DNA of 64,000 nt from assembly GCA_934130175.1 (NCBI GenBank), contig CAKOXP010000008.1, positions 181 to 64,180 on the forward strand, given 5' to 3'. Shown here one piece after another: positions 2,390 to 59,591 of the stretch (within the stretch, counting starts at the first letter, position 1; every line of letters begins with the position of its first letter). Made by a program: the position numbers and the translations under genes. Source of the stretch: an uncultured Bacilli bacterium (GTDB taxonomy: Bacteria; Bacillota_I; Bacilli_A; RF39; UBA660). Below the pieces are notes generated by a model that saw nothing but the letters and a program-made list of their open reading frames with translations, searched no databases and had not been told where the DNA came from.

Positions 2390-3421
2390 TTAATACGAAA
2401 TATTTGTTTTTGCAACTTCTATAACTGGACGAACACCTCTTTTGCCATAAAATAGCTCACCAGTTTCATCAGAGTTCCCATCTCCTGTTGAATCAACGTA
2501 GAAAGCATAAATTCCACGAAATTCAGTAAAGAGTAACATAGCCATGTTTGTTTTATACATATCTAGTTTAGAAGAATGTGCATTTTCTAACCAATATCCA
2601 TATGCATCATTTTTATTGTTTGAACTATATTGAGTACTTTCCATATAATAACTATATTGTTTTAAAATACCTTTTTGAAATGTACCATAATTTGAAATTG
2701 ATTTTTTTAAATCTTCAATAGCTAATAATCTTGCAGCATACCCATTATAAGAAAAAGTTGTTGGTAACGTTCCAGATGATGCTATATTAGTACCAATTTC
2801 ATTTGTTATCGTTCGAGATATATTTTTTAAATTCACATTCTTCCATTGCTCTACAGTTGGTAATTGTTTAATAGCCGTTACTGGTCCATTATTATTACTA
2901 CTACTTTCATCATAAGCAATTCCTACTGTACTTGTAGGATTTGCACCATCTACGTTACTATAATAAATCAACATTGCAGTATCATCATCTAAATCTCCTA
3001 GATAGTAAAATCTCTCTGTTGCTTCATTATATACTCCATCTCCATTTACATCACAGTCAAATGCATCTCCATTTGTTAATGTTCCCTTTGTTCCAAGACT
3101 TCCATAGGTTATAGCATCACCAAGTGAATAACCATCTGCTAAACAATAACCAGAGGTATCAGTATTTTCACATTTTTCTGTATGAAGACTTGTCGCACGC
3201 TTACACAATACTGGTTTACAATAAGAACCTTTTGGACATTCTTTTTTAGCTTCTTCTATCTTCTTTGTTGCTTTAGTACTTATTTTATCTAAAGCATCTT
3301 GAACATTTGTTGCCCCTAAATTGTCCGTATCTACATAATTTATACTTGTTGCCTGTATAATTGTCGATGCATATACACTAGTTCCGAGTAGTAGTAAACT
3401 AACTACCCCCCCCCAGTACAA
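2390..3421 (-). CDS. Secreted protein with an NVQDALD N-module and a Cys-rich/GVRPVIEV C-module; native 5' end (ATG 3464) is out of frame at a G9 tract
   Basis: The track ORF starts at a TTG. Upstream, SD GGAAGGTG-5nt-ATG(3464) opens MKIIKLIMKNNNYKFVLGGGS*, which stops at 3399-3401. G8 or G11 would fuse it to ...VVSLLLLGTSVYASTIIQ (a good signal peptide). The C-terminal 270 aa are paralogous to 53749..55143 and 58197..59591. Confidence 0.75.
   Translation of the reverse strand: MYWGGVVSLLLLGTSVYASTIIQATSINYVDTDNLGATNVQDALDKISTKATKKIEEAKKECPKGSYCKPVLCKRATSLHTEKCENTDTSGYCLADGYSLGDAITYGSLGTKGTLTNGDAFDCDVNGDGVYNEATERFYYLGDLDDDTAMLIYYSNVDGANPTSTVGIAYDESSSNNNGPVTAIKQLPTVEQWKNVNLKNISRTITNEIGTNIASSGTLPTTFSYNGYAARLLAIEDLKKSISNYGTFQKGILKQYSYYMESTQYSSNNKNDAYGYWLENAHSSKLDMYKTNMAMLLFTEFRGIYAFYVDSTGDGNSDETGELFYGKRGVRPVIEVAKTNISY
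3406..3414 (-). repeat. Homopolymeric G9 (C9 on the plus strand) in the 5' coding region
   Basis: Counted base by base. It is one of only two 9-nt G/C runs noticed in this AT-rich window. Confidence 0.95.
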
Positions 3422-3605
3422 ATTTGTAATTATTATTTTTCATTATCAACTTTATTATTTTCATCTTTTCACCTTCCATTATAATTAAAGTATACTTTAT
3501 TTTTTAATTCATTTCAATTGATTTTCACTAAATTTACAACTTAACTTCACTCTATCTTCACAAAAAATGAATAGACTTATTATGTACAGAAAGGAGATAT
3601 ATAAA

Positions 3606-5093
3606 ATGTACTTATTTAAAAATGCTTTTAAAAATATTACAAGAAGTAAGGGAAAAAATATTTTGATTGGAATTATTATTACTGTAGTAACAACATGTAC
3701 TTGTATTTCACTAGCAATAAATAAAGCTGCTTCTAACTTAGTTAATAGTTATAAAACAAAGAATCCATTAGAAGTTAGTTTCAATCTAGATATGTCAAAT
3801 TTAAGAAGCGCAACTGATAGTGAAAAAGAAAATTTTCAGTCACTAACGGTTGATAATATCAAATCCTATGGTGATAGTAATCTTGTAAAGGATTATTACT
3901 ATACCTTAGAGACAAGCATAAATAGTAATGATGTTACAGCTATTGAAGGTAATAAAAAACCAAATGCAGATAATGACAATAACAATGAAATGAAAGATGA
4001 TAATCATAAAAAATTTGATAACTCAAATATGGGTAATTTTAGATTAACAGCTTATTCTAACTTTGCTTACTTAGATGATTTTACAACTGGTAATAAAAAA
4101 ATCATTGAAGGTAAAATGATTACTGGTGATAGTGATAGTAGTGAAATAGTTATTTCTAAAGACTTAAAAGATGAAAATAATTTAGAACTTAATCAAGAAA
4201 TAACCTTTACAAATCCAAGTGATGATGAAAAAAGTTATACTTTTAAAATTGTAGGAATTTATGAAAATGAAGCTAGTTCTTCCACATCTAATTTCATGGA
4301 TATGAATGTTTTAAATAGTGCTAACCAAATATATGCCAATCTAAATAGTGTTCAAAAAGTTTTAGATGATAATAGTAGTAATGATGAAAATAAGCTTGTA
4401 AGAAATAATGGTTTAACTGCTAAATTCTATCTAAATAAAAATAGCGATTTAAAAGAGTTTGAAAAAGAAGTTAGAAAAAAAGGATTAAGCAGTTATTATG
4501 AAGTTAGTACCAATGAAAATGAAATTTTAGAAACATTAAAACCTATTCAAAATATCTCAACATTCTCAATTAATTTCTTAATAGTTATCATAATTATTGG
4601 TATCGTAGTTTTAACTATTATTAATTTCTTAAATATTAGAGATAGAAAATATGAAATTGGTGTATTACGTGCTATTGGAATGAGTAAATTTAAAGTTACA
4701 CTCCAATTAGTATTAGAAACTTTCTTTGTAGCTTTCGCATCACTAATTATTGGTACTGCAGTTGGAATAATTTCTAGTCAACCTGTTACTAACTACATGC
4801 TTAAAAATGAAATAAACTCTTATAAAGAGGAAGTTGAAAATACTACTAATAATTTTAAAGATAATAATTTCCAGAGACCTAGCGAAAGTATGAAAGATGA
4901 TAATATAAAAAAAGGAAAACCTGGAGTTAATAGAAATATAGATTATGTAGATAGTTTGAAGGTTCATATTGATATCTTAACTATTATAGAATTATTTGGT
5001 GTATGTATCTTGTTAACTGCTACTAGTGTTATCACAGTATCCTTAATTATAAATAAATATAGTCCAAATAAAATACTACAAAATAGATTATAG
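3606..5093 (+). CDS. ABC transporter permease, MacB/FtsX type (1 TM, large extracytoplasmic domain, 3 TM)
   Basis: The track ORF starts at 3567, but AGGAG lies 9 nt before ATG 3606 (MYLFKNAFKNITRSKGKNILIGIII). FtsX-type C-terminal TM triplet, adjacent to an ATPase gene. Confidence 0.8.
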   Translation: MYLFKNAFKNITRSKGKNILIGIIITVVTTCTCISLAINKAASNLVNSYKTKNPLEVSFNLDMSNLRSATDSEKENFQSLTVDNIKSYGDSNLVKDYYYTLETSINSNDVTAIEGNKKPNADNDNNNEMKDDNHKKFDNSNMGNFRLTAYSNFAYLDDFTTGNKKIIEGKMITGDSDSSEIVISKDLKDENNLELNQEITFTNPSDDEKSYTFKIVGIYENEASSSTSNFMDMNVLNSANQIYANLNSVQKVLDDNSSNDENKLVRNNGLTAKFYLNKNSDLKEFEKEVRKKGLSSYYEVSTNENEILETLKPIQNISTFSINFLIVIIIIGIVVLTIINFLNIRDRKYEIGVLRAIGMSKFKVTLQLVLETFFVAFASLIIGTAVGIISSQPVTNYMLKNEINSYKEEVENTTNNFKDNNFQRPSESMKDDNIKKGKPGVNRNIDYVDSLKVHIDILTIIELFGVCILLTATSVITVSLIINKYSPNKILQNRL

Positions 5094-15545: not shown

Positions 15546-17852
15546 TTAATCATCCAAGAAAGATAAATCGTTCTGTTTTTCTAAAGTAATAGTATCCTTA
15601 TTAGTCATAAAGCAAAGATCTTTATACTTACAATAACAACAAGATAAATTAGAGTTATCCATCACTTTGGGATCAATTCTAAAATCTGCATCCAAGATAT
15701 AATCAACTGCTTCATTAATTTTCTTATCCGTATAAGTTAAGATGTTATCAAATTCTTCATCATTAAGAACCTTTGCATAAGCAGAAAATGATGAATCCTT
15801 ATTTAATTTCATACTTTTGATAAGTTCACTCTTCTCATAAGTTTTATCAAAATCACTTAATACTTCTAAATCTGCTGTCGAATATCCTTGTAATTTTAAA
15901 TTTTCAAGTCTCATTTCTTCTAAAGTTTTTGAAGAAGAAAAGCTATTATTTGAATTTAAAACTTTTTGTAAATATATACCAGCAATTCTTGGATTTGTAA
16001 ATAATCCTGATTTATTAACTAAATATAAATATATAGGTAACTGCATACTTAAACCGTATTTTAAGTTATTAATATTTGTCGTAATACTTCCTGTTTTATA
16101 ATCAATTATACTAACTAGATTATTGTGATACATTATTTTATCTATTTTACCAGTTAAGATTGTATCTATTTGTTTATCTAATTTAACATTAACTTCTTTT
16201 TCATATAATTTATCTTTAAAATTTGTTAGTAAATCTTGATCCTTAATTATTCTAATATCTTCTTTTAAATCTTCTTTTAAATTGTCTAAGAAAAATCTTT
16301 CTTTTAAACTCAAGGTTTGTTTTTCTAAATAAGAATCCCATTCCCTATCTAAATTAAATAATGGATTATCCATAACTGAAAATATATAATGAAATAAATT
16401 ACCAATAACAGTTGAAAAATTCGATTTATATGGATCTATTTTCAAAATATACTTTATATAATATTGAAACTTACATAGATAAAAACTATTTAGTGAAGTA
16501 TAACTTACTTTTAGATATGAATTTAAGTATTCATAGAGTTCTTCTTTCTTAACATTCTTATATTTGTTGTCATATGTATTATATGGAATCACATAATGAC
16601 TATATAATTTCTTTAGATAATCATCTATTTCATTATATTTATAATAATTATCTAATTTTTCACCAAGTAATAACTTATTATATAAATTACTATTAGTAGT
16701 ATTCATTTTATAATCTATAACTTCTAGATTTAATTCATCTATTAAACTTGATTTTAGATATTCATTAAAACTACTTTTATCTTTGTATGATAAAATGCAA
16801 TTTTTTGTATTTGAAATTATACTAATAACACGTTCTTTTTCTTTCTTATTTTTTATATATGAAGGCATTAATCCAACAGTTAGTTTTAACTTATCGGACA
16901 AATAGTCCTCATCCTTATATATCTTAGGCAATACATCTTGATTTAAACTTACAATAAATAAATAGTTATCATCATCTACTATAGGAATATCAGAGACTAC
17001 ATTAATAGCATTATCATATCTAGTAGAGCTTAGTTTAGTACTTTTTAAAGTATCAACTAAAAATTCTTGATAATTAGGACTATCTTCAATATCTTTTAAA
17101 GAATTTATCACATCAACCAACTTTTTAACTATAGGATTAATAAATCCTGGTAATTCCTTTGTTTCTAAATATTTCTTAACAATACTAGTACCATATAAAT
17201 TTTGATTTAAATTAATATTAAGTGGAATATTATAATAAGAAAATAATTTATACATTAGAAAACTATATTCACTATCTACATTAGAAATAATTATCTTATT
17301 TAGTGGTACACCTTTATCTATTAAAGATAGGATATTTTCTATCACGAATATAATTTCCTCTTCTAAGCTACTACAATGATATACAGGAATATTTATATTC
17401 TTTGGTTTCAAGTTAACAATTTTATTATTTTTGAAAATTTCTTCTTCATAAGGTTCAAGCAAAAAATAATTATATATTAAAATATTCTTATTTTTTATAT
17501 AGTTTTTGAATAAGAAGTTAAATTCCAAATAGTTATTTTCTATTAAATCTTTCTTTATATTTTGAAGACTAATTAGCTTGGAATCATTATAATTCTTTTC
17601 TACATCTATAAAATATAAATTGTTTATGATTGTCTTTGCTGTTGAAATATTATAATGATATTTAGAAATTAAATAATCAAGTGTTTTATTCTCATATGAA
17701 AAAAAGTAAGATTTTCTAAACTCCTCTAAAGAGATAAATTTTATTGGTACTAGGCTATCTGAATACTTTTTTAAAATATATTTTTTTGTTTTGTTAGGAG
17801 TAATTAATATTGTATCTTCATTCATGTTAAGTTCTAAATCCATAAGTTTCAC
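15546..17852 (-). CDS. addB: Helicase-nuclease subunit B, compact form (768 aa)
   Basis: C-terminal RecB-type nuclease IIDYKTG plus an Fe-S cysteine pattern (an upstream Cys in FYLCKF, then C-x2-C-x5-C in SCCYCKYKDLC). No intact Walker A at the N-terminus. Confidence 0.8.
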   Translation of the reverse strand: MKLMDLELNMNEDTILITPNKTKKYILKKYSDSLVPIKFISLEEFRKSYFFSYENKTLDYLISKYHYNISTAKTIINNLYFIDVEKNYNDSKLISLQNIKKDLIENNYLEFNFLFKNYIKNKNILIYNYFLLEPYEEEIFKNNKIVNLKPKNINIPVYHCSSLEEEIIFVIENILSLIDKGVPLNKIIISNVDSEYSFLMYKLFSYYNIPLNINLNQNLYGTSIVKKYLETKELPGFINPIVKKLVDVINSLKDIEDSPNYQEFLVDTLKSTKLSSTRYDNAINVVSDIPIVDDDNYLFIVSLNQDVLPKIYKDEDYLSDKLKLTVGLMPSYIKNKKEKERVISIISNTKNCILSYKDKSSFNEYLKSSLIDELNLEVIDYKMNTTNSNLYNKLLLGEKLDNYYKYNEIDDYLKKLYSHYVIPYNTYDNKYKNVKKEELYEYLNSYLKVSYTSLNSFYLCKFQYYIKYILKIDPYKSNFSTVIGNLFHYIFSVMDNPLFNLDREWDSYLEKQTLSLKERFFLDNLKEDLKEDIRIIKDQDLLTNFKDKLYEKEVNVKLDKQIDTILTGKIDKIMYHNNLVSIIDYKTGSITTNINNLKYGLSMQLPIYLYLVNKSGLFTNPRIAGIYLQKVLNSNNSFSSSKTLEEMRLENLKLQGYSTADLEVLSDFDKTYEKSELIKSMKLNKDSSFSAYAKVLNDEEFDNILTYTDKKINEAVDYILDADFRIDPKVMDNSNLSCCYCKYKDLCFMTNKDTITLEKQNDLSFLDD

Positions 17853-17914
17853 CTTTAAATATTATAGCATATAAATTATTATTTTAGAAAAGAAAAAAAC
17901 ATCCAAAGATGTTG

Positions 17915-18457
17915 TCAAATAGCATATGATATTGTTCCTATTACTTTGGCACTTGTTATCTTGGTACCAGTTAGCTCTCTTAACATAACATCACCATTTG
18001 GTTTAATTGTCAAGAATGCGGTATTACTAACACTACTTTCTTGCCAAACAATTCCATCAACCTGTTGTCTTGGTCTGTAATCAGTTGGTATATTAAATAC
18101 AACATTTGTAGTTGGTGATTTTACGTAAACCCCAATATTTATAATGACTGTACTAGATGTTTTTGCATAATAATTATTATGCAGAGAATCATTTATTAAA
18201 GTATAACCACTATTAAAATTTGAAACTATAGTCTTTTTTGTTTCTAACTTGTCTTCAATACTTGAAAGCCTAGAATTTACTTTACCACAAGTTCCATCAA
18301 TAGCTGCTTGAACGTTAGCAGCACCTAAGGATGAATTATCTGAATAACCAACTTTACTGGCACTAATTGCATAAGTTGTTGCAGCATACGTACAGCCTAT
18401 AGAAATAATACCAGTTATTAGTGTAGTAATTATAATTATCATAATTGTTTTCTTCAT
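17915..18457 (-). CDS. Small secreted protein, NVQAAIDG N-module with a unique C-terminal domain (paralog of 32339..32878)
   Basis: SD AGGTGGTG then ATG 18457. Signal peptide ...SIGCTYA, then ATTYAISASKVGYSDNSSLGAANVQAAIDGTCGKV. Confidence 0.7.
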   Translation of the reverse strand: MKKTIMIIIITTLITGIISIGCTYAATTYAISASKVGYSDNSSLGAANVQAAIDGTCGKVNSRLSSIEDKLETKKTIVSNFNSGYTLINDSLHNNYYAKTSSTVIINIGVYVKSPTTNVVFNIPTDYRPRQQVDGIVWQESSVSNTAFLTIKPNGDVMLRELTGTKITSAKVIGTISYAI

Positions 18458-18490
18458 CTTAGACACCACCTATTATACTATTCTAAGATT

Positions 18491-18504
18491 ATTATACCCA
18501 CCCC
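18491..18504 (-). promoter_or_regulatory. -10 TATAAT preceded by an interrupted G tract (GGGGTGGG)
   Basis: Minus strand reads TTGATT-18nt-TATAAT. Homologous to the G9-containing promoter at 32913..32927. Confidence 0.5.
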
Positions 18505-18508
18505 GAAA

Positions 18509-18537
18509 CAAAAAAATCAAGCAATTTCTTGCTTGAT
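18509..18537 (-). terminator. Intrinsic terminator after rpmF (part of the duplicated cassette 5' region)
   Basis: ATCAAGCAA-gaaa-TTGCTTGAT followed by T7. Confidence 0.7.
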
Positions 18538-18547
18538 TCTTAACTTA

Positions 18548-32258: not shown

Positions 32259-32338
32259 TATATCTTACTCCTATCTATAAAAATTATAACACTAAAAGAT
32301 AATATTTCAAAGAAAAAAGTCTCCTACTTAAAGACCAA

Positions 32339-32878
32339 TTACCTTGCATACAATCTAATAATTTCAAAATGATTTTGATTTACATTTGATGATTTTGACG
32401 TTGTTCCTACCACAATGCTTTTTTTTGTTATTGAAATAGCACCATCCCAGTAATAACCATAGTTACTACTATAGGAATAAAGTTTACTACTAAACTTTCC
32501 AGTTGATGTAGGTGGAATTTGATAACTGTTAGCAGAATAGGCCCAAAAGTTAGAAACATAGATTATTGGAACAATTTCTGTATATTCTGACAAATCAATA
32601 TTATAAGTAAGTGAGTAGCCGTTGCTGGTATCTTTAGTTGGTGTTGGTAGAGTTATTTCAATCAAATTCTTGTTAAGCTTATTTGCTAAAACAGTACTTA
32701 CCTTACTACAAGTTCCATCGATTGCTGCTTGAACGTTATCTGCTCCTAAACTGGAATTGTCTGTATAACCAATATTTGAAGCATTAATTGCATATGTTGT
32801 TGCAGCATATGATCCACTTATTGAAATTACACAGGTAATTGTCGCTATTATAAGTGTTATTCTTAAACTCTTTTTCAT
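32339..32878 (-). CDS. Small secreted protein, NVQAAIDG N-module with a unique C-terminal domain (paralog of 17915..18457)
   Basis: SD GGTAGGTG then ATG 32878. Signal peptide ...SISGSYA, then ATTYAINASNIGYTDNSSLGADNVQAAIDGTCSKV. Confidence 0.7.
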   Translation of the reverse strand: MKKSLRITLIIATITCVISISGSYAATTYAINASNIGYTDNSSLGADNVQAAIDGTCSKVSTVLANKLNKNLIEITLPTPTKDTSNGYSLTYNIDLSEYTEIVPIIYVSNFWAYSANSYQIPPTSTGKFSSKLYSYSSNYGYYWDGAISITKKSIVVGTTSKSSNVNQNHFEIIRLYAR

Positions 32879-32912
32879 CTTAGATATCACCTACCATACT
32901 ATATCTAAGATT

Positions 32913-32927
32913 ATTATACCCCCCCCC
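32913..32927 (-). promoter_or_regulatory. -10 TATAAT immediately preceded by a G9 tract in the promoter spacer
   Basis: Minus strand reads TTGATT-tttttt-gcctc-GGGGGGGGG-TATAAT, a 20-nt spacer versus 18 nt in the paralogous promoter. Confidence 0.55.
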
Positions 32928-32932
32928 GAGGC

Positions 32933-32961
32933 AAAAAAAATCAAGCAAAATTTTTGCTTGA
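32933..32961 (-). terminator. Intrinsic terminator after ftsZ (homologous to the one after rpmF)
   Basis: TCAAGCAAAA-a-TTTTGCTTGA followed by T8. Confidence 0.7.
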
Positions 32962-32967
32962 CTTAGA

Positions 32968-34113
32968 TTAATAATTTCTATCCTTTAAAAATGGAGGAAG
33001 ATCAAATTCTGAATCAGAATCATTAGATGAATCCTCATCAATAGGAGTTAATATTTCACTAGTTGGTTGTGATTGATATATCATTTCTGGTTCAACTCTT
33101 TGGGTTCTTCTTGTTTGTTGAACATTGCTGTAAACAGGTTGACTACTTTCTATTTCTCTATTTTTCTTATCGAAACCTGTAGCAATTACAGTAACTATTA
33201 CTTCGTCAGATAAGTTTTCATTAATAACTGAACCAAAGATTGTATTAATATCAGTATTAGCTGCTGCACGTACAACTTCTGCTGCTTGTTCTGCTTCAAA
33301 TAATGTTAAGTTAACTCCACCTGTAATATTGATAATAGCATCAGTTGCTCCTTCAATAGATGTTTCAAGAAGTGGTGAAGATACAGCCTGTTTAGCAGCT
33401 TCAATTGCTCTATCTTCTCCCATACCAATACCAATACCGATAATAGCATGACCACTTTTCTCCATTACAGCTTTAACATCTGCAAAGTCTAGGTTAACAA
33501 GTCCAACTACAGCAATCAAATCAGAAATTGATTGAACACCACGACGTAATACGTTATCAACTTCTTTAAATGCTTCTAACATTGGAGTTGTTTTATCAAT
33601 AATTTCTCTTAATCTATCATTTGGAATAACAATTAAAGTATCTACATGTTTCTTTAATTCTTCTAATCCTTCTAAAGCATTTTGCATTCTCTTCTTACCT
33701 TCGAATGAGAAAGGTTTTGTAACAATTGCTACTGTAAGTGCACCTAAAGCTTGAGCAATTTCAGCAACTACTGGAGCTGCACCAGTTCCAGTTCCTCCAC
33801 CCATTCCACAAGTAACAAATACCATATCTGCTCCTGCTAAAGCATCTTCTATTTCTTTCTTAGATTCAACTGCAGCTTCTTTACCAATCTCTGGTCTTGC
33901 TCCTGCTCCTAATCCATCTGTAAGAGATGCTCCTATTTGAATTTTAACATCTGCTTTAGAACTATTTAATACTTGTAAATCTGTGTTAGCTGCAATAAAC
34001 TCTACTCCCTTAACACCAGATTCAACCATTCTATTGATAGCGTTACCGCCACCTCCACCAAGACCTATTACTTTAATCTTGGCTAATTGATCCATTTCTA
34101 ATCCGCCTATCAT
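32968..34113 (-). CDS. ftsZ: Cell division GTPase FtsZ
   Basis: GLGGGGGNA and [10 protein letters not shown] motifs, with a C-terminal DLPPFLK tail. Confidence 0.97.
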
Positions 34114-42356: not shown

Positions 42357-42591
42357 ATATATCCTCCTTACAAAAAAAATAACTATAATCTAAGGACGAA
42401 TTATCGCGGTACCACCTTAGTTTATAGTTATTTATTACTTACTATACACTTATATTCTTTTAACGCAAGAATTACGCTTACTATTAATAAGGACTCCTAA
42501 GACGAATTCGTATAATTATATTATCTGTTTCCACCAACCACAGACTCTCTAAAAATAATCATTATATTACTACTTCTTAATCAACATCGAT
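42357..42591 (-). promoter_or_regulatory. T-box leader (Phe) with terminator/antiterminator
   Basis: Minus strand has an extended -10 TGaTATAAT (42598..42606). Stem I-like elements are CGATGTTGA, AGAGAG and GGTGGAAAC, and a GAA-UUC-G specifier candidate lies at 42504..42509. The T-box motif is AAGGTGGTACCGCG (42405..42418). The terminator is CTATAAACTAAGG...CCTTAGATTATAG followed by T8 (42371..42427). Confidence 0.85.
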
Positions 42592-42632
42592 AGCTGTATT
42601 ATATCACAAAAAGTACAAATTTACTAGTGTTT

Positions 42633-53748: not shown

Positions 53749-55143
53749 CTAATAATCAATATCAGTTTTAGCAACTTCTATTACTGGACGAACACCAAAA
53801 GAATAAGTGCTGGTAACATGATTTAACTCTAAACGACGATAATCAGCATCAATGGTCAAAACTGAAGAAAAATATAGAGAACCATGTGTTTCTAACCATT
53901 CACCTTTTGTCATTAAATCACCTGATGAATATTTTGTATTTTCCATTAGATATTTACATTTAGTACTCACTTCTCCCAATCCTCCATTATTTATTATAAC
54001 ATCACATCCTGCACTCATTTCTTGACCCGTTAATAATCGTGCTGCATAACCTTCATAACTAAATCCTGATTTTCTAACTATGCCTTCAGAATCTGTTATA
54101 TCTCTTATATTGCTTTTTAATCTTACATTTTTCCATTGATCTATTGTTGGTAATTGTTTTATTGCTGTTACTGGTCCATCAATATAATCTCTTGAATCAT
54201 AATTCTGAGCATTTGAATCATACGGATATACTGTTGAATTTGAAGGTTTTCCCTCGCTTACGTTATTATAATAGATTAACACTGCTGTTTTATCATCCGT
54301 TGTTGTTCCATTTATCATATCTGATACATAATAAAATCTTTCTGTTTCAGCATCATATATACTATCACCATTAACATCACAATCAAAAGCATCACCTGAT
54401 GCGAGTATTCCACTCTTTCCTAAATTACCATATGTTATTGTTGTAGTTTTCATACTTCCACTTGCTGTATAGCCATCTGCACCACAAAAGTGATACTCAT
54501 TTGTTTGGCTACATGTTTCTGTATGAAGTGTTGTTGCTCTTTTACATATTGCTGTTTTTGTTGGTGTTACTGTTTGAGTAGCTTCTAAACTAAGTTGAGC
54601 ATTAAATATTTTTCCCATTACTTCGTTTTCTGTATTATTATCTCCTGCTTTTGAGTCTATCCAAATTCTTAAACTATACTTAATAGTTTTTCCTTTTTCA
54701 ATTGTTCCTGAGTCTATTACTCTATCTGTTAATATTTTTGATTTTGATGCTGTTGCTTCTTCTCCATCTTTTAATAAAATATATCTTACTTTAGAGTCAG
54801 CTAATCTATCTTCATCTGCTATTGTTACATCTTCATTATTATCATTTGTATAAATATCTAGATCTTTTAATGATAAAGTATAACTACTTGTACTACTTTT
54901 ATTTGTTAATGTAAATGTATATTCTTTTGTAGTCATTCCTTGTCTATAACTTCTTGGTACTTCTTTTGTTAATTTTATTCCCTCACTTGTTGTATCATCT
55001 AATGTTAATTCTAAGTTTCCTGCTGTTATCTTGTTAATTATCTCTGATTTTTTAGTTATATTTAACCACGCATATGTTGTTCCTATTATTACTACTAGTG
55101 TTAGCACTAGTGCAACTACTAATATTTTTTTATTATTTTTCAT
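53749..55143 (-). CDS. Secreted two-module protein: TasA/SipW-type N-module plus Cys-rich DVNGD / GVRPVIEV C-module
   Basis: IIGTTYAWLNITKKSEIINKITAGNLELTL...FNAQLSLEATQ, then CKRATTLHTETC...GDAFDCDVNGDSIYD...GPVTAIKQLPT...GYAARLLT...GVRPVIEVAKTDIDY. Confidence 0.7.
   Translation of the reverse strand: MKNNKKILVVALVLTLVVIIGTTYAWLNITKKSEIINKITAGNLELTLDDTTSEGIKLTKEVPRSYRQGMTTKEYTFTLTNKSSTSSYTLSLKDLDIYTNDNNEDVTIADEDRLADSKVRYILLKDGEEATASKSKILTDRVIDSGTIEKGKTIKYSLRIWIDSKAGDNNTENEVMGKIFNAQLSLEATQTVTPTKTAICKRATTLHTETCSQTNEYHFCGADGYTASGSMKTTTITYGNLGKSGILASGDAFDCDVNGDSIYDAETERFYYVSDMINGTTTDDKTAVLIYYNNVSEGKPSNSTVYPYDSNAQNYDSRDYIDGPVTAIKQLPTIDQWKNVRLKSNIRDITDSEGIVRKSGFSYEGYAARLLTGQEMSAGCDVIINNGGLGEVSTKCKYLMENTKYSSGDLMTKGEWLETHGSLYFSSVLTIDADYRRLELNHVTSTYSFGVRPVIEVAKTDIDY
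54530..55143 (-). repeat. Direct repeat copy A (~610 bp, the N-module-coding part) matching 58978..59591
   Basis: Side-by-side reading shows roughly nine in ten identical positions (by eye, not computed). Confidence 0.8.
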
Positions 55144-58196: not shown

Positions 58197-59591
58197 TTAA
58201 TATTCGATATTTACTTTAGCAACTTCTATTGCAGGACGGACGCCACGATAACTTGCACTATTTACATATACGTAATCAATATATCGATAATTACCGCGAA
58301 CAAGCCAAGCATAATTTGAGCGTGATGAATCCGGAGTTTCTAACAATCCTCCGTAAGTAGCTAAACTATCAGATGAATATTTTGTATTTTCCATTAAATA
58401 TTTACATTTACTACTTAGTTCACCTTTTATATAACTTCCTACTATAACATCACAACCAGTACTTACTTCTTGGGTAGTTAATAGTCTTGCTGCATATCCT
58501 TCATAACTAAAGGCTGTTGGAAGATCTCCCGCAGTTGTTGTATTTCCTCCATTCTCATTTGTTATAGCTCTTGTTGTATTTGTTAGGTTTACGTTACTCC
58601 ATTGCTCTGTTGTTGGTAATTGTTTTATTGCTGTTACTGGGCCATTATTGTTAGTTCCACTTTCATCATATGCATATGCTGTTGAATTAGATGCCACTCC
58701 TCCACTTACATTATTATAATAGATTAATACCGCTGTATTATTATCTGTTGTAACTCCATTTGTTACATCTGATACATAATAAAATCTTTCTGTTTCAGAA
58801 TCATATAATCCATCCCCATTAACATCACAATCAAATGCATCTCCACTTGTTAGAACTCCTTTTGTTCCCAGATTTCCATAGGTCATTGCATCATTTAAGG
58901 CATATCCATCCGCTTGACAATATCCTGTTGCATCTTCATTAGAACAAGTTTCTGTATGAAGTGTTGTTGCTCTTTTACATACTGCTGTTTTTGTTGGGGT
59001 TACTGTTTGAGTAGCTTCTAAACTTAGTTGTGCGTTAAATACTTTTCCCATTACTTCTTCTTCTGTATTATTATCTCCTGCTTTTGAATCTATCCAGATT
59101 CTTAGACTATAAGTAATTGTTTTTCCTTTTTCTATTGTTCCTGAGTCTATTACTCTATCTGTTAATATTTTTGATTTTGCTGCAGTTGCTTCTTCTCCAT
59201 CTTTTAATAAAATATATCTTACTTTAGAATCAGCTAATCTATCTGCATCTGTTATTGCTACTTCTTCATTATTATCATTTGTATAAGTATCTAGATCTTT
59301 TAATGATAAAGTATAACTACTTGTACTACTTTTATTTGTTAATGTAAATGTATACTCTTCTGTTTTTATTCCTTGTTGATAACTCATTGGGATTGCTTTT
59401 ATTAATTTTATTCCTTCACTTGTTGTATCATCTAATACTAATTCTAAGTTTCCTGCTGTTATTTTATTTACTATATCTGAATTCTTTGTTAGTCTTAACC
59501 ATGCATATGTTGTTCCTATTATTACTACTAGGATTAATACTATAGCTATTACTAAAAGTTTTGCATTTCCTATTTTTTTCTTTTCTTCCAT
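58197..59591 (-). CDS. Secreted two-module protein, paralog of 53749..55143
   Basis: Same N-module. The C-module CKRATTLHTETC...GDAFDCDVNGDGLYD...GVRPAIEVAKVNIEY is closer to that of 2390..3421. Confidence 0.7.
   Translation of the reverse strand: MEEKKKIGNAKLLVIAIVLILVVIIGTTYAWLRLTKNSDIVNKITAGNLELVLDDTTSEGIKLIKAIPMSYQQGIKTEEYTFTLTNKSSTSSYTLSLKDLDTYTNDNNEEVAITDADRLADSKVRYILLKDGEEATAAKSKILTDRVIDSGTIEKGKTITYSLRIWIDSKAGDNNTEEEVMGKVFNAQLSLEATQTVTPTKTAVCKRATTLHTETCSNEDATGYCQADGYALNDAMTYGNLGTKGVLTSGDAFDCDVNGDGLYDSETERFYYVSDVTNGVTTDNNTAVLIYYNNVSGGVASNSTAYAYDESGTNNNGPVTAIKQLPTTEQWSNVNLTNTTRAITNENGGNTTTAGDLPTAFSYEGYAARLLTTQEVSTGCDVIVGSYIKGELSSKCKYLMENTKYSSDSLATYGGLLETPDSSRSNYAWLVRGNYRYIDYVYVNSASYRGVRPAIEVAKVNIEY
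58978..59591 (-). repeat. Direct repeat copy B matching 54530..55143
   Basis: See copy A. The two copies are offset by 4448 bp. Confidence 0.8.

Follow-up and report, generated by a model that had tools for sequence, protein, structure and literature searches.

A candidate contingency-locus family of exported, phage-fibre-like proteins behind housekeeping genes of uncultured gut Bacilli

The DNA analysed here (the window) is a stretch of 64,000 nucleotides from contig CAKOXP010000008.1 of an uncultured Bacilli bacterium (assembly GCA_934130175.1). It carries two small genes, termed locus A and locus B, that share a 5' cassette made of a terminator-like hairpin, a predicted promoter, a leader, a signal peptide and a short mature motif (the N-module). 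All genes and signals placed by window coordinates below lie on the minus strand (-). The coding sequence of locus A (17915..18457; translated as 180 amino acids [aa] from its ATG) is downstream of rpmF, the gene of ribosomal protein L32 (18548..18766; TIGR01031, 79.3 bits vs. a cut-off of 22.6), with 90 nt between the end of rpmF and the start of locus A. The coding sequence of locus B (32339..32878; translated as 179 aa) is downstream of ftsZ (32968..34113; TIGR00065, 427 bits). The neighbouring genes are rpmF and addB at locus A, and ftsZ and ftsK at locus B; no phage genes were seen nearby. The locus A protein is divided into a signal peptide (18386..18457), the N-module (codons 25-60, 18278..18385), and a neck and head (17918..18277). 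The corresponding parts of the locus B protein are encoded at 32807..32878, 32699..32806 and 32342..32698, respectively.

The initial annotation, made from the window alone, had reported a ~270-bp common 5' region at 17915..18540 and 32339..32962. BLASTN confirmed it as a 267-bp alignment with 76.8% identity (E 1e-47), and found no third DNA copy of the shared module in the 64-kb window. Identity between the two loci was 79% in the hairpin and T-run, 80% in the spacer and -10, 85% in the 5' untranslated region (5'UTR), 71% in the signal peptide and 81% in the mature N-module. The gene bodies, the 3' flanks and the rpmF and ftsZ ends reached 60-63% identity in forced alignment, which is background because the DNA is AT-rich (27% GC). 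The BLASTP alignment of the two proteins was confined to residues 1 to ~66, and in an hhalign comparison of the two subfamily profiles only columns 1-68 aligned (E 9e-37). The remaining bodies are thus unalignable, as first described.

The hairpin that opens the cassette spans 18512..18541 at locus A, with a core stem ATCAAGCAA/TTGCTTGAT at 18516..18537 and a T7 run, and 32938..32964 at locus B, with a stem GTCAAGCAA/TTGCTTGAT and a T8 run at 32933..32940; in other samples the locus B run is T7. A terminator scan called hairpins at both loci, when 0.1 were expected by chance, and the predicted fold energies were -14.3 kcal/mol (z -4.2) for locus A and -11.8 kcal/mol (z -2.9) for locus B. Within the window the hairpin sequence is present at these two loci only (0 expected). 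The rpmF stop codon is 6 nt away from the hairpin and the ftsZ stop codon directly adjoins it, and no other terminator was found between rpmF or ftsZ and the cassette hairpin. Across 17 paralogous loci, 97.4% of the hairpin cells were paired, 10 out of 10 one-sided changes led to G-U or U-G pairs, which are possible on the sense RNA only, and one compensatory change (C-G to U-A) was seen. Such pairing, with changes that only the sense strand tolerates, is consistent with an RNA terminator acting on co-directional upstream transcripts. The same hairpin precedes paralogues behind a dUTPase gene, a kinase-like gene and unknown genes, as well as those behind rpmF and ftsZ, and it precedes every gene of a three-gene tandem array. 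The idea that the hairpin came with the cassette is thereby supported. In a minority of loci (L001, L005, L006, L135 and L196) the 5' arm is missing and CTTGATTTTT onwards is kept, so that the -35 marks the core 5' limit of the module. The cassette terminator would insulate the downstream promoter from read-through, as an on/off promoter requires.

The hairpin 3' arm and T-run together read GCTTGATTTTT, which includes TTGATT. At locus A, a promoter scan gave as the best sigma-70-like site a predicted -35 TTGATT (18515..18520), inside the hairpin 3' arm and T-run, an 18-nt spacer and a -10 TATAAT (18491..18496), with 10 out of 12 matches. This -10 is invariant in the paralogue alignment A5, as is the CTTGATTTTT block (columns 31-40) in the 17 paralogues, and the G before that block is present in 16 of them. 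The homologous locus B elements are a predicted -35 TTGATT at 32939..32944 and a -10 TATAAT at 32913..32918. The predicted promoter spacer is composed of the T-run, ~six variable bases and a G tract adjoining the -10. A G tract had been attributed to both loci. This holds for locus B, which has a pure G9 tract (32919..32927) directly upstream of the -10, a candidate slipped-strand switch, but the locus A tract, read directly, is interrupted (GGGGTGGG, 18497..18504). The locus A tract is identical in L054, the sole strain contig that spans it, and this tract is probably not mutable and the copy locked. The locus B spacer is 20 nt in the window (G9 and T8), 19 nt in contig L047 and 18 nt in contig L048. 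A sigma-F-type reading of GGGTATAATA was considered and rejected, as inspection showed no properly spaced -35.

Downstream of the -10, the leader is predicted to fold into a stem (CUUAGAU...AUCUAAG) that begins at about the expected transcript start, with the Shine-Dalgarno (SD) sequence in or next to the loop. At locus A, the 5'UTR stem-loop (18457..18488, UCUUAGA...UCUAAGA; -9.5 kcal/mol, z -3.3) encloses the SD AGGTGGTG (18464..18471), and its last base is the first one of the start codon, the ATG following 8 nt after AGGTGG. At locus B (32877..32911, AUCUUAGAUAU...AUAUCUAAGAU; -10.4 kcal/mol, z -3.6), the SD AGGTGAT (32886..32892) spans the loop and the 3' arm, and the stem takes in the AU of the start codon. 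In the 17 paralogues, 92% of the stem cells were paired, and z values ranged from -2.6 to -3.9. Covariation support for this hairpin was no better than in shuffles and was discarded. The stem-loop could serve as an mRNA stabiliser or as a translational attenuator.

The family signal peptide is of the Sec type, with a conserved [TSA]-Y-A↓A-T junction (the arrow marks the predicted cleavage position). The mature motif behind it comprises ~35 near-invariant residues, ATxYAIxAxxIGYxDNSxLGxxNVQAAIDGTC, preceded by the Y-A↓A junction. Among paralogues, the proportion of differences in the N-module was 0.48 at synonymous (pS) and 0.14 at non-synonymous sites (pN), hence the motif is under purifying selection at the protein level and does not merely reflect recent gene conversion. 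Codons 18-22 of locus A (18392..18406) also fit a possible lipobox, ISIG↓C in the context ...ISIG↓CTYA, so the locus A protein might be lipid-anchored. The lipobox Cys is missing in locus B and in most family members, being confined to the locus-A subtype.

Two protein searches returned 62 and 122 relatives, with the N-module common to all. An N-module profile run against 1.8 billion representative proteins gave 172 clusters at 50% identity, in which the module was nearly always at residues 1-64 of proteins of 60-340 aa. The nearest reference species-level metagenome-assembled genome (MAG), HGM10839, has 13 module-headed genes at 10 loci (L001-L005, L007-L010 and L024), and a rabbit-gut MAG has up to ~16 module loci; the module is therefore multi-copy, as its duplication in the window had suggested. 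When one genome per species was searched, 46 loci were found, all in eight "uncultured Bacilli bacterium" gut MAGs of human and rabbit origin. Module loci are often at contig ends, as expected for repeats. A metagenome scan with the pattern GGGTATAATNNNYTTAGATA was too unspecific, since 9 out of 120 fetched loci were true family members. The genes upstream of family members are housekeeping genes, and include those for dUTPase, a sigma factor and an AI-2E transporter, besides unknowns. The proposal that the cassettes sit behind essential operons is thus right as to housekeeping genes, but not all of these are essential. Genes for SpoIIP, GPR and a SigE-like sigma factor are found nearby, and on the strength of these sporulation neighbours the host is a spore-former.

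A distant member of the family is encoded at 2390..3421 of the window. It has a variant N-motif (NVQDALD), a Cys-rich head and its own promoter; the NVQxAxD motif that had been noticed in it was recovered by tblastn (E 2e-6), and BLASTP matched the protein to a relative, P0137 (E 2e-6). P0137 (324 aa), encoded at L007:2298-3272 of HGM10839, has a similar Cys-rich head. It stands behind the same hairpin-G9-TTATAAT-leader module, which makes the regulatory module common to a second N-motif and body class.

At least seven mutually unrelated clusters of bodies follow the DGTC codons; Gp10_C is the largest (92 proteins), type A has 20 members and type B 17, and the other four are small. Types of signal peptide cross-assort with types of body. 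N-termini identical to that of locus A are found on a type-B-like body (P0009), on a Gp10_C body (P0011) and on another type-A subfamily (P0008). Bodies are also replaced at one and the same locus. P0009 is encoded behind rpmF in four other samples, and the rpmF locus of the window was aligned with the P0009 contigs, with HGM10839 (L003) and with the metagenome contig L125. The flanks were 94-96% identical up to window positions 18275-18287, which is the end of the N-module, and identity was back at ~17900, just beyond the stop codon, the whole interval being replaced. The replacements consisted of a type-B-like body and an AraC-type gene in one set, and of Gp10_C genes in the others. The 3' limit of this strain-variable island is a weak terminator-like hairpin after locus A (17893..17914, CAACATC...GATGTTG and T7; -5.1 kcal/mol, z -1.3), identity to other strains being back from ~17900. 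The counterpart after locus B (32313..32336; -7.2 kcal/mol, centroid hairpin -5.4, z -0.1) is not significant. Interchangeable bodies, as initially proposed, are therefore evident both from at least seven types on one module and from the replacement at the rpmF locus, and related strains do not simply carry the same two genes without variation.

In contigs L189-L192 (~2600-3800), the rpmF locus has a gene for an AraC/GyrI-like regulator inserted between addB and the family gene; ~110 bp resembling window 17801..17913 precede the regulator gene, and the same flank resumes behind it. At the ftsZ locus of relatives, the type-B body is kept with 87-99% identity, the difference lying in the signal peptide. 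The ftsZ-locus copy of HGM10839 (L004:3001-3346) is frameshifted, with an 85-aa open reading frame and DNA 88% identical to the window, and is a decaying family member. In L177, L180 and L185, an HTH_38 transposase-like gene on the opposite strand takes the place of the first gene of the three-gene Gp10_C array seen in L176, L178 and L179. In body exchange, the conserved module (or the upstream gene) and the locus flank look like the recombination arms.

The G tract lies within a core promoter that is itself predicted. The 64-kb window contains two G/C runs of at least 6, both of them G9 and both in NVQ-family genes; 0.005 runs of at least 9 were expected. One is the locus B tract and the other (3406..3414) is near the 5' end of the gene at 2390..3421, where it seems to be a translational (frameshift) and not a promoter repeat. 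Pure G9 with a 19-nt spacer was found in 19 out of 29 tabulated family promoters, G9 being the modal length. Across samples, the locus B tract was G8 in two cases (L048 and L049), G9 in four (the window, L047, L051 and L053) and G10 in one (L085), with T7 or T8 in the T-run and near-identical flanks. At the P0033 locus, G8 was found three times and G9 seven times; a neighbouring gene encoding 274 aa had G9 and G10, and a neighbouring gene encoding 220 aa had G8 and G9. At four loci, contigs with an identical encoded protein differed almost solely in their G and T tracts. Within the three-gene array tract lengths were independent, as in L179 (8/9/10). Overall, 6 out of 19 G9 comparisons differed, vs. 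3 out of 148 comparisons of control A/T runs (6-8 nt) from these contigs, and all three were the promoter's own T-run. At the dUTPase locus (P0090, L197-L200), T12 or T10 stands before G9, the length of the T-run depending on the sample. Rabbit-gut lineages have G9-G11 or (TA)5-8 at the corresponding promoter position: in MAGs Lapin-027 bin88 (L015, L020, L022, L033 and L035) and Lapin-016 bin45 (L043-L045), either (TA)5-8 lies between TATAAT and an upstream TTGACT or TTGATA, or G9-G11 precedes TATTAT.

This variation fits slipped-strand phase variation of transcription. Locus B is the predicted mutable copy, and it is probably low or off in the window genome. The suggestion that the genes are individually switchable gains from pure tracts of 8, 9 or 10 between samples and from their independence within an array; switching itself is our inference, and the suggestion fails to extend to locus A, where the tract is interrupted and invariant.

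Monomer models of both proteins were built with AlphaFold2 (AF2) from family alignments, and each shows a signal helix, the N-motif, a long helix and a beta-sandwich head. In the locus A model the helix spans residues 43-71 and the head has a predicted local distance difference test (pLDDT) score of ~90; in the locus B model the helix spans residues 45-68 and the head scores ~85. The folds of both C-terminal domains could thus be predicted, head A being like that of the receptor-binding protein (RBP) of a phage, and head B a beta-sandwich without significant match in the Protein Data Bank (PDB). Foldseek gave 23 PDB matches at E <=1e-3 for head A; RBP chains of the lactococcal phages TP901-1 or p2 took the first six places and most of the remaining ones. 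The best match was to a TP901-1/p2 RBP head (E 1.7e-5, probability 1.0, template modelling [TM] score ~0.45-0.5) at a sequence identity of 14-20%. Two chains of a Zamilon virophage protein and one Pseudomonas phage tail needle made up three further matches, and adenovirus fibre knobs followed at weaker scores. For head B, the best matches in BFVD were weak (E 1e-3) and were phage tail or uncharacterised siphovirus proteins. By overall plan, the mature protein resembles, in these models, a short RBP composed of N-terminal segment, neck and head, and would form trimers.

Profile comparisons point in the same direction. The locus A protein matched minor tail protein families in PHROG (phrog_3639, E 3.5e-8), and P0001 aligned with phrog_3285 over residues 15-169. 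Most relatives, including rpmF-locus alleles of other strains, have a Gp10_C domain (PF21939) with HxH motifs; P0019, P0082, P0023, P0121 and P0011 passed its gathering threshold (59-95 bits). For P0019, which is of the Gp10_C type, the best PHROG tail-fibre alignments set in between residues 29 and 42, at the NVQ motif or ahead of it. There is no Pfam model for this motif; in the form xVxYxDxSxLGAxNVQxAIDxL, it is repeated internally 3-26 times, in tandem, in long tail-fibre-like proteins. P0187 (2309 aa), P0275 and P0221 are such long proteins, with 5-26 copies of the shaft motif, and P0221 ends in a C-terminal Peptidase_S74 chaperone domain and has many PHROG tail-fibre matches. The N-module is, by this likeness, a tail-fibre shaft motif. 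The resemblance to phage tail-fibre N-termini suggested in the initial annotation has therefore been substantiated, through Gp10_C and PHROG tail matches, the TP901-1 RBP-like head A and NVQ repeats in tail-fibre-like proteins. Unlike phage genes, however, the family genes have a Sec signal and chromosomal housekeeping contexts, and no relatives in viral contigs or GenBank phages. The N-module profile found no relative in 2.9 million viral contigs, and PDB sequence searches with this profile and with a Gp10_C member gave no match. PADLOC returned nothing for A, B and two Gp10_C relatives, and a weak, sub-threshold match of P0003 to DrmD (E 0.0015, 15 bits).

Taken together, these data are probably best explained by a contingency-locus family in which insulated promoters with repeat-containing spacers drive exported, trimeric, fibre-like proteins whose heads are exchangeable at the N-module. 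The family is restricted to a clade of uncultured gut Bacilli and would consist of small Sec-exported proteins built like phage RBP or tail-fibre tips. In such a scheme, (i) the hairpin would stop read-through from the co-directional upstream gene (rpmF or ftsZ) and insulate the cassette; (ii) a sigma-70-type promoter would be used, with its -35 TTGATT in the hairpin 3' arm and a spacer holding the T-run and the poly-G that adjoins the -10; (iii) a structured leader would carry the SD; (iv) the signal peptide would be cleaved at the conserved [TSA]-Y-A↓A; and (v) a mature motif of ~35 residues would lead into the helical neck. The N-motif would probably be a trimerisation or docking element, and might also act as a homology arm for recombination, with at least seven unrelated beta-sandwich head types being swapped downstream of it between loci and strains. 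Slipped-strand gain or loss of G's (and T's) would shift the -35/-10 spacing between 18 and 20 nt, and each gene would go up or down independently. The outcome would be a population with stochastic, strain-variable binding specificities. The family would thus probably provide a variable set of binding proteins, secreted or on the surface and switched by mutation, whose ligands may be glycans or other cells.

Several observations weigh against this explanation. On the promoter side, tract lengths were taken from consensus assemblies, some at low coverage (2-7x). All spacers of 18-20 nt exceed the 17-nt optimum, and T12 at one locus brings the distance from TTGATT to TATAAT to 27 nt, so that either this copy is off or TTGATT is not the sole -35. 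Spacers of 18 nt and of 19 nt are both found with interrupted tracts; the attempt to deduce the ON spacer length from such tracts was thus abandoned, the ON length not being readable from the sequence. On the protein side, the N-module is of low confidence in the AF2 monomers, and Foldseek found no PDB match for head B at E <=1e-3. Pfam gave no match up to E=1 for three window proteins that include A and B (P0001 and P0002), and a tblastn search of mature A and B against 50,697 GenBank phages gave none. No cell-wall anchor, sortase signal, wall-binding domain or linked partner gene was seen that would retain the proteins at the surface. Finally, a common 3' repeat bounding the bodies was sought and not found, and consequently body exchange would be at best ordinary homologous recombination and not a dedicated shuffling system.

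Four other explanations were weighed. An ordinary paralogous family of constitutive secreted proteins, in which the G tract is a fixed element and lengths of 8, 9 and 10 are homopolymer errors of short-read assembly, would account for tract lengths that all come from consensus contigs (some at 2-7x) and for G9 being by far the modal length, since seven further contigs of two loci were all G9. We regard it as unlikely, because non-modal lengths recur across independent studies (G8 in Hadza and MERR22 assemblies), none of the 148 A/T-run comparisons (6-8 nt) differed outside the promoter in the same contigs, and dozens of paralogues, in 27%-GC DNA, retain a pure G9 at one and the same promoter position, where other lineages have (TA)n. 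In addition, three Logan contigs start exactly within pure tracts, but the Logan contig of one same run (ERR7737974) crosses an interrupted tract. A transposition origin has a still smaller chance, and we rate it as very improbable: the ~90-nt regulatory unit (hairpin, promoter and leader) would be a mobile element of the Correia type or a miniature inverted-repeat transposable element that spread the family. The module does have a sharp boundary at the hairpin and stands 0-10 nt behind the stop codons of unrelated genes; it is also found, in L007, in front of a gene (P0137) whose N-motif and head type are different. No copy without a family gene exists in the window, however, and neither a 3' boundary repeat nor target duplications or terminal inverted repeats came to light. 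Three to four related genomes and metagenome contigs were examined, and in these the rpmF and ftsZ sites are filled, at 87-96% flank identity, which indicates old, vertically inherited insertions.

The phage likeness raises the question of whether the genes encode alternative tail fibres or RBPs of a prophage, tailocin or contractile injection system specified elsewhere in the genome, and the RBP-like folds, the Gp10_C domains and the shaft motif shared with tail fibres would agree with this. Phage tails assemble in the cytoplasm, but every member starts with a Sec-type signal peptide. The genes, moreover, stand singly behind rpmF, ftsZ, dUTPase, sigma factor and other genes with no phage genes nearby, and neither the 2.9 million viral contigs nor GenBank phages hold a relative, hence this origin is highly unlikely. 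The same architecture might also serve another role, with secreted RBP-like trimers masking the producer's phage receptors or binding competitors rather than acting as host adhesins. TP901-1 and p2 RBP heads bind bacterial cell-wall saccharides, and the fold match of head A to lactococcal-type heads, the lack of a recognisable wall anchor and the fast turnover of the head repertoire between strains would all suit such a role. There is no match to known defence families and no toxin or enzyme domain, and the proposal is purely inferential; we consider it quite unlikely, though less so than a phage or transposon origin. A more far-reaching version of the contingency-locus explanation is speculative and rather unlikely, yet less so than any of these rivals. 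According to it, domesticated phage RBP tips would work as a cellular "plug-in" system, the N-module with its conserved Cys docking all members on one common surface anchor in the manner of an RBP on a baseplate, and dozens of heads each being gated by an insulated poly-G or (TA)n promoter. If so, a clonal population would display stochastic, combinatorial specificities for host glycans, for microbes or for phage-receptor masking.

Two further window features were recorded. A T-box leader lies at 42389..42593 (RF00230, 113.9 bits). Two proteins encoded at 54991..55143 and 59424..59558 have ...GTTYAW N-termini, a signal-peptide form of the SipW/TasA type, and gave weak tblastn matches to the locus-A N-terminus.

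Phase-variable surface repertoires are textbook matter for Neisseria, Haemophilus, Mycoplasma and Treponema, and phase variation in the gut is known mostly from invertible promoters in Bacteroides. If the contingency-locus explanation is true, uncultured, genome-reduced, spore-forming gut Bacilli of humans and rabbits use simple-repeat promoters for surface repertoires, and such promoters drive a sizeable exported family that is derived from phage tail-fibre tips and swaps heads at the strain level. The family would then be a source of a compact natural terminator-promoter-leader-signal cassette and of small domains that are candidate lectins or receptor binders, some of them without structural relative, and it would offer a marker of strain dynamics in metagenomes (tract length plus head type). 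It would also carry a warning for annotation: contig breaks in these MAGs, and the "hypothetical proteins" encoded behind their core genes, would betray a repeated contingency family.

The initial annotation had likened the genes to variable surface antigens of mycoplasmas, Vlp of Mycoplasma hyorhinis and Vsp of M. bovis. Like these, the gut family consists of many genes that share a highly conserved 5' block, made up of promoter, leader and signal peptide, and have divergent mature regions and a homopolymer tract in the -35/-10 spacer, which in Vlp/Vsp lets each gene switch independently. A poly-G between TTGATT and TATAAT was found in most paralogues, an analogy only, as the Vlp tract is poly-A. 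Vlp are lipoproteins with tandem-repeat C-termini, encoded at one clustered locus of wall-less Mollicutes. In contrast, the gut family has a family-wide peptide of the signal peptidase I type, an insulating terminator and a dispersed arrangement behind housekeeping genes. Its consensus [TSA]-Y-A↓A-T has no Cys, ISIG↓C being limited to the locus-A subtype; Tandem Repeats Finder found no repeats in either gene, the heads being compact beta-sandwiches in the AF2 models; and there is no sequence homology to Vlp/Vsp. The resemblance therefore stands for the conserved 5' block and the spacer tract, but membership does not.

Closer in tract type are porA/opc of Neisseria meningitidis and tpr/tp0126 of Treponema pallidum, where a G/C homopolymer at or in the promoter spacer of exported-protein genes varies by single units between populations. 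In these genes the length of the spacer tract sets the level of transcription. Both marks of such contingency loci, a repeat in the (here predicted) core promoter and length polymorphism between samples with constant flanks, were found in the gut family. The pathogen genes encode outer-membrane proteins of diderms, whereas the gut family belongs to a low-GC spore-forming commensal, with a tract that adjoins the predicted -10 of dozens of paralogues.

For the protein, the nearest comparison is with the RBPs of the lactococcal siphophages TP901-1 (ORF49/BppL; 2f0c, 3ejc and 4v96) and p2 (1zru and 2bsd), chains of ~160 residues in which a docking segment at the N-terminus is followed by a helical or fibre neck and then by a beta-sandwich head. 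Lactococcal-phage RBP heads are swappable at the neck, both naturally and experimentally (chimera 3d8m). A superposable head was found for A only, head B being unmatched, and the phage proteins are encoded in tail modules, lack a signal peptide and dock in a baseplate, whereas the gut family has Sec signals, housekeeping contexts and its own predicted promoters. Tips of the Gp10_C (PF21939) or tail-collar type with HxH motifs follow the same N-module in most family members, but A and B themselves are below threshold, with no Pfam match. A literature search found no description of such a family, which is not proof of absence. The logic of the switch and the modular logic of RBPs are known; what appears new is that both come together, along with a compact terminator-promoter cassette, in a multi-copy family of exported cellular proteins from an unstudied gut lineage.

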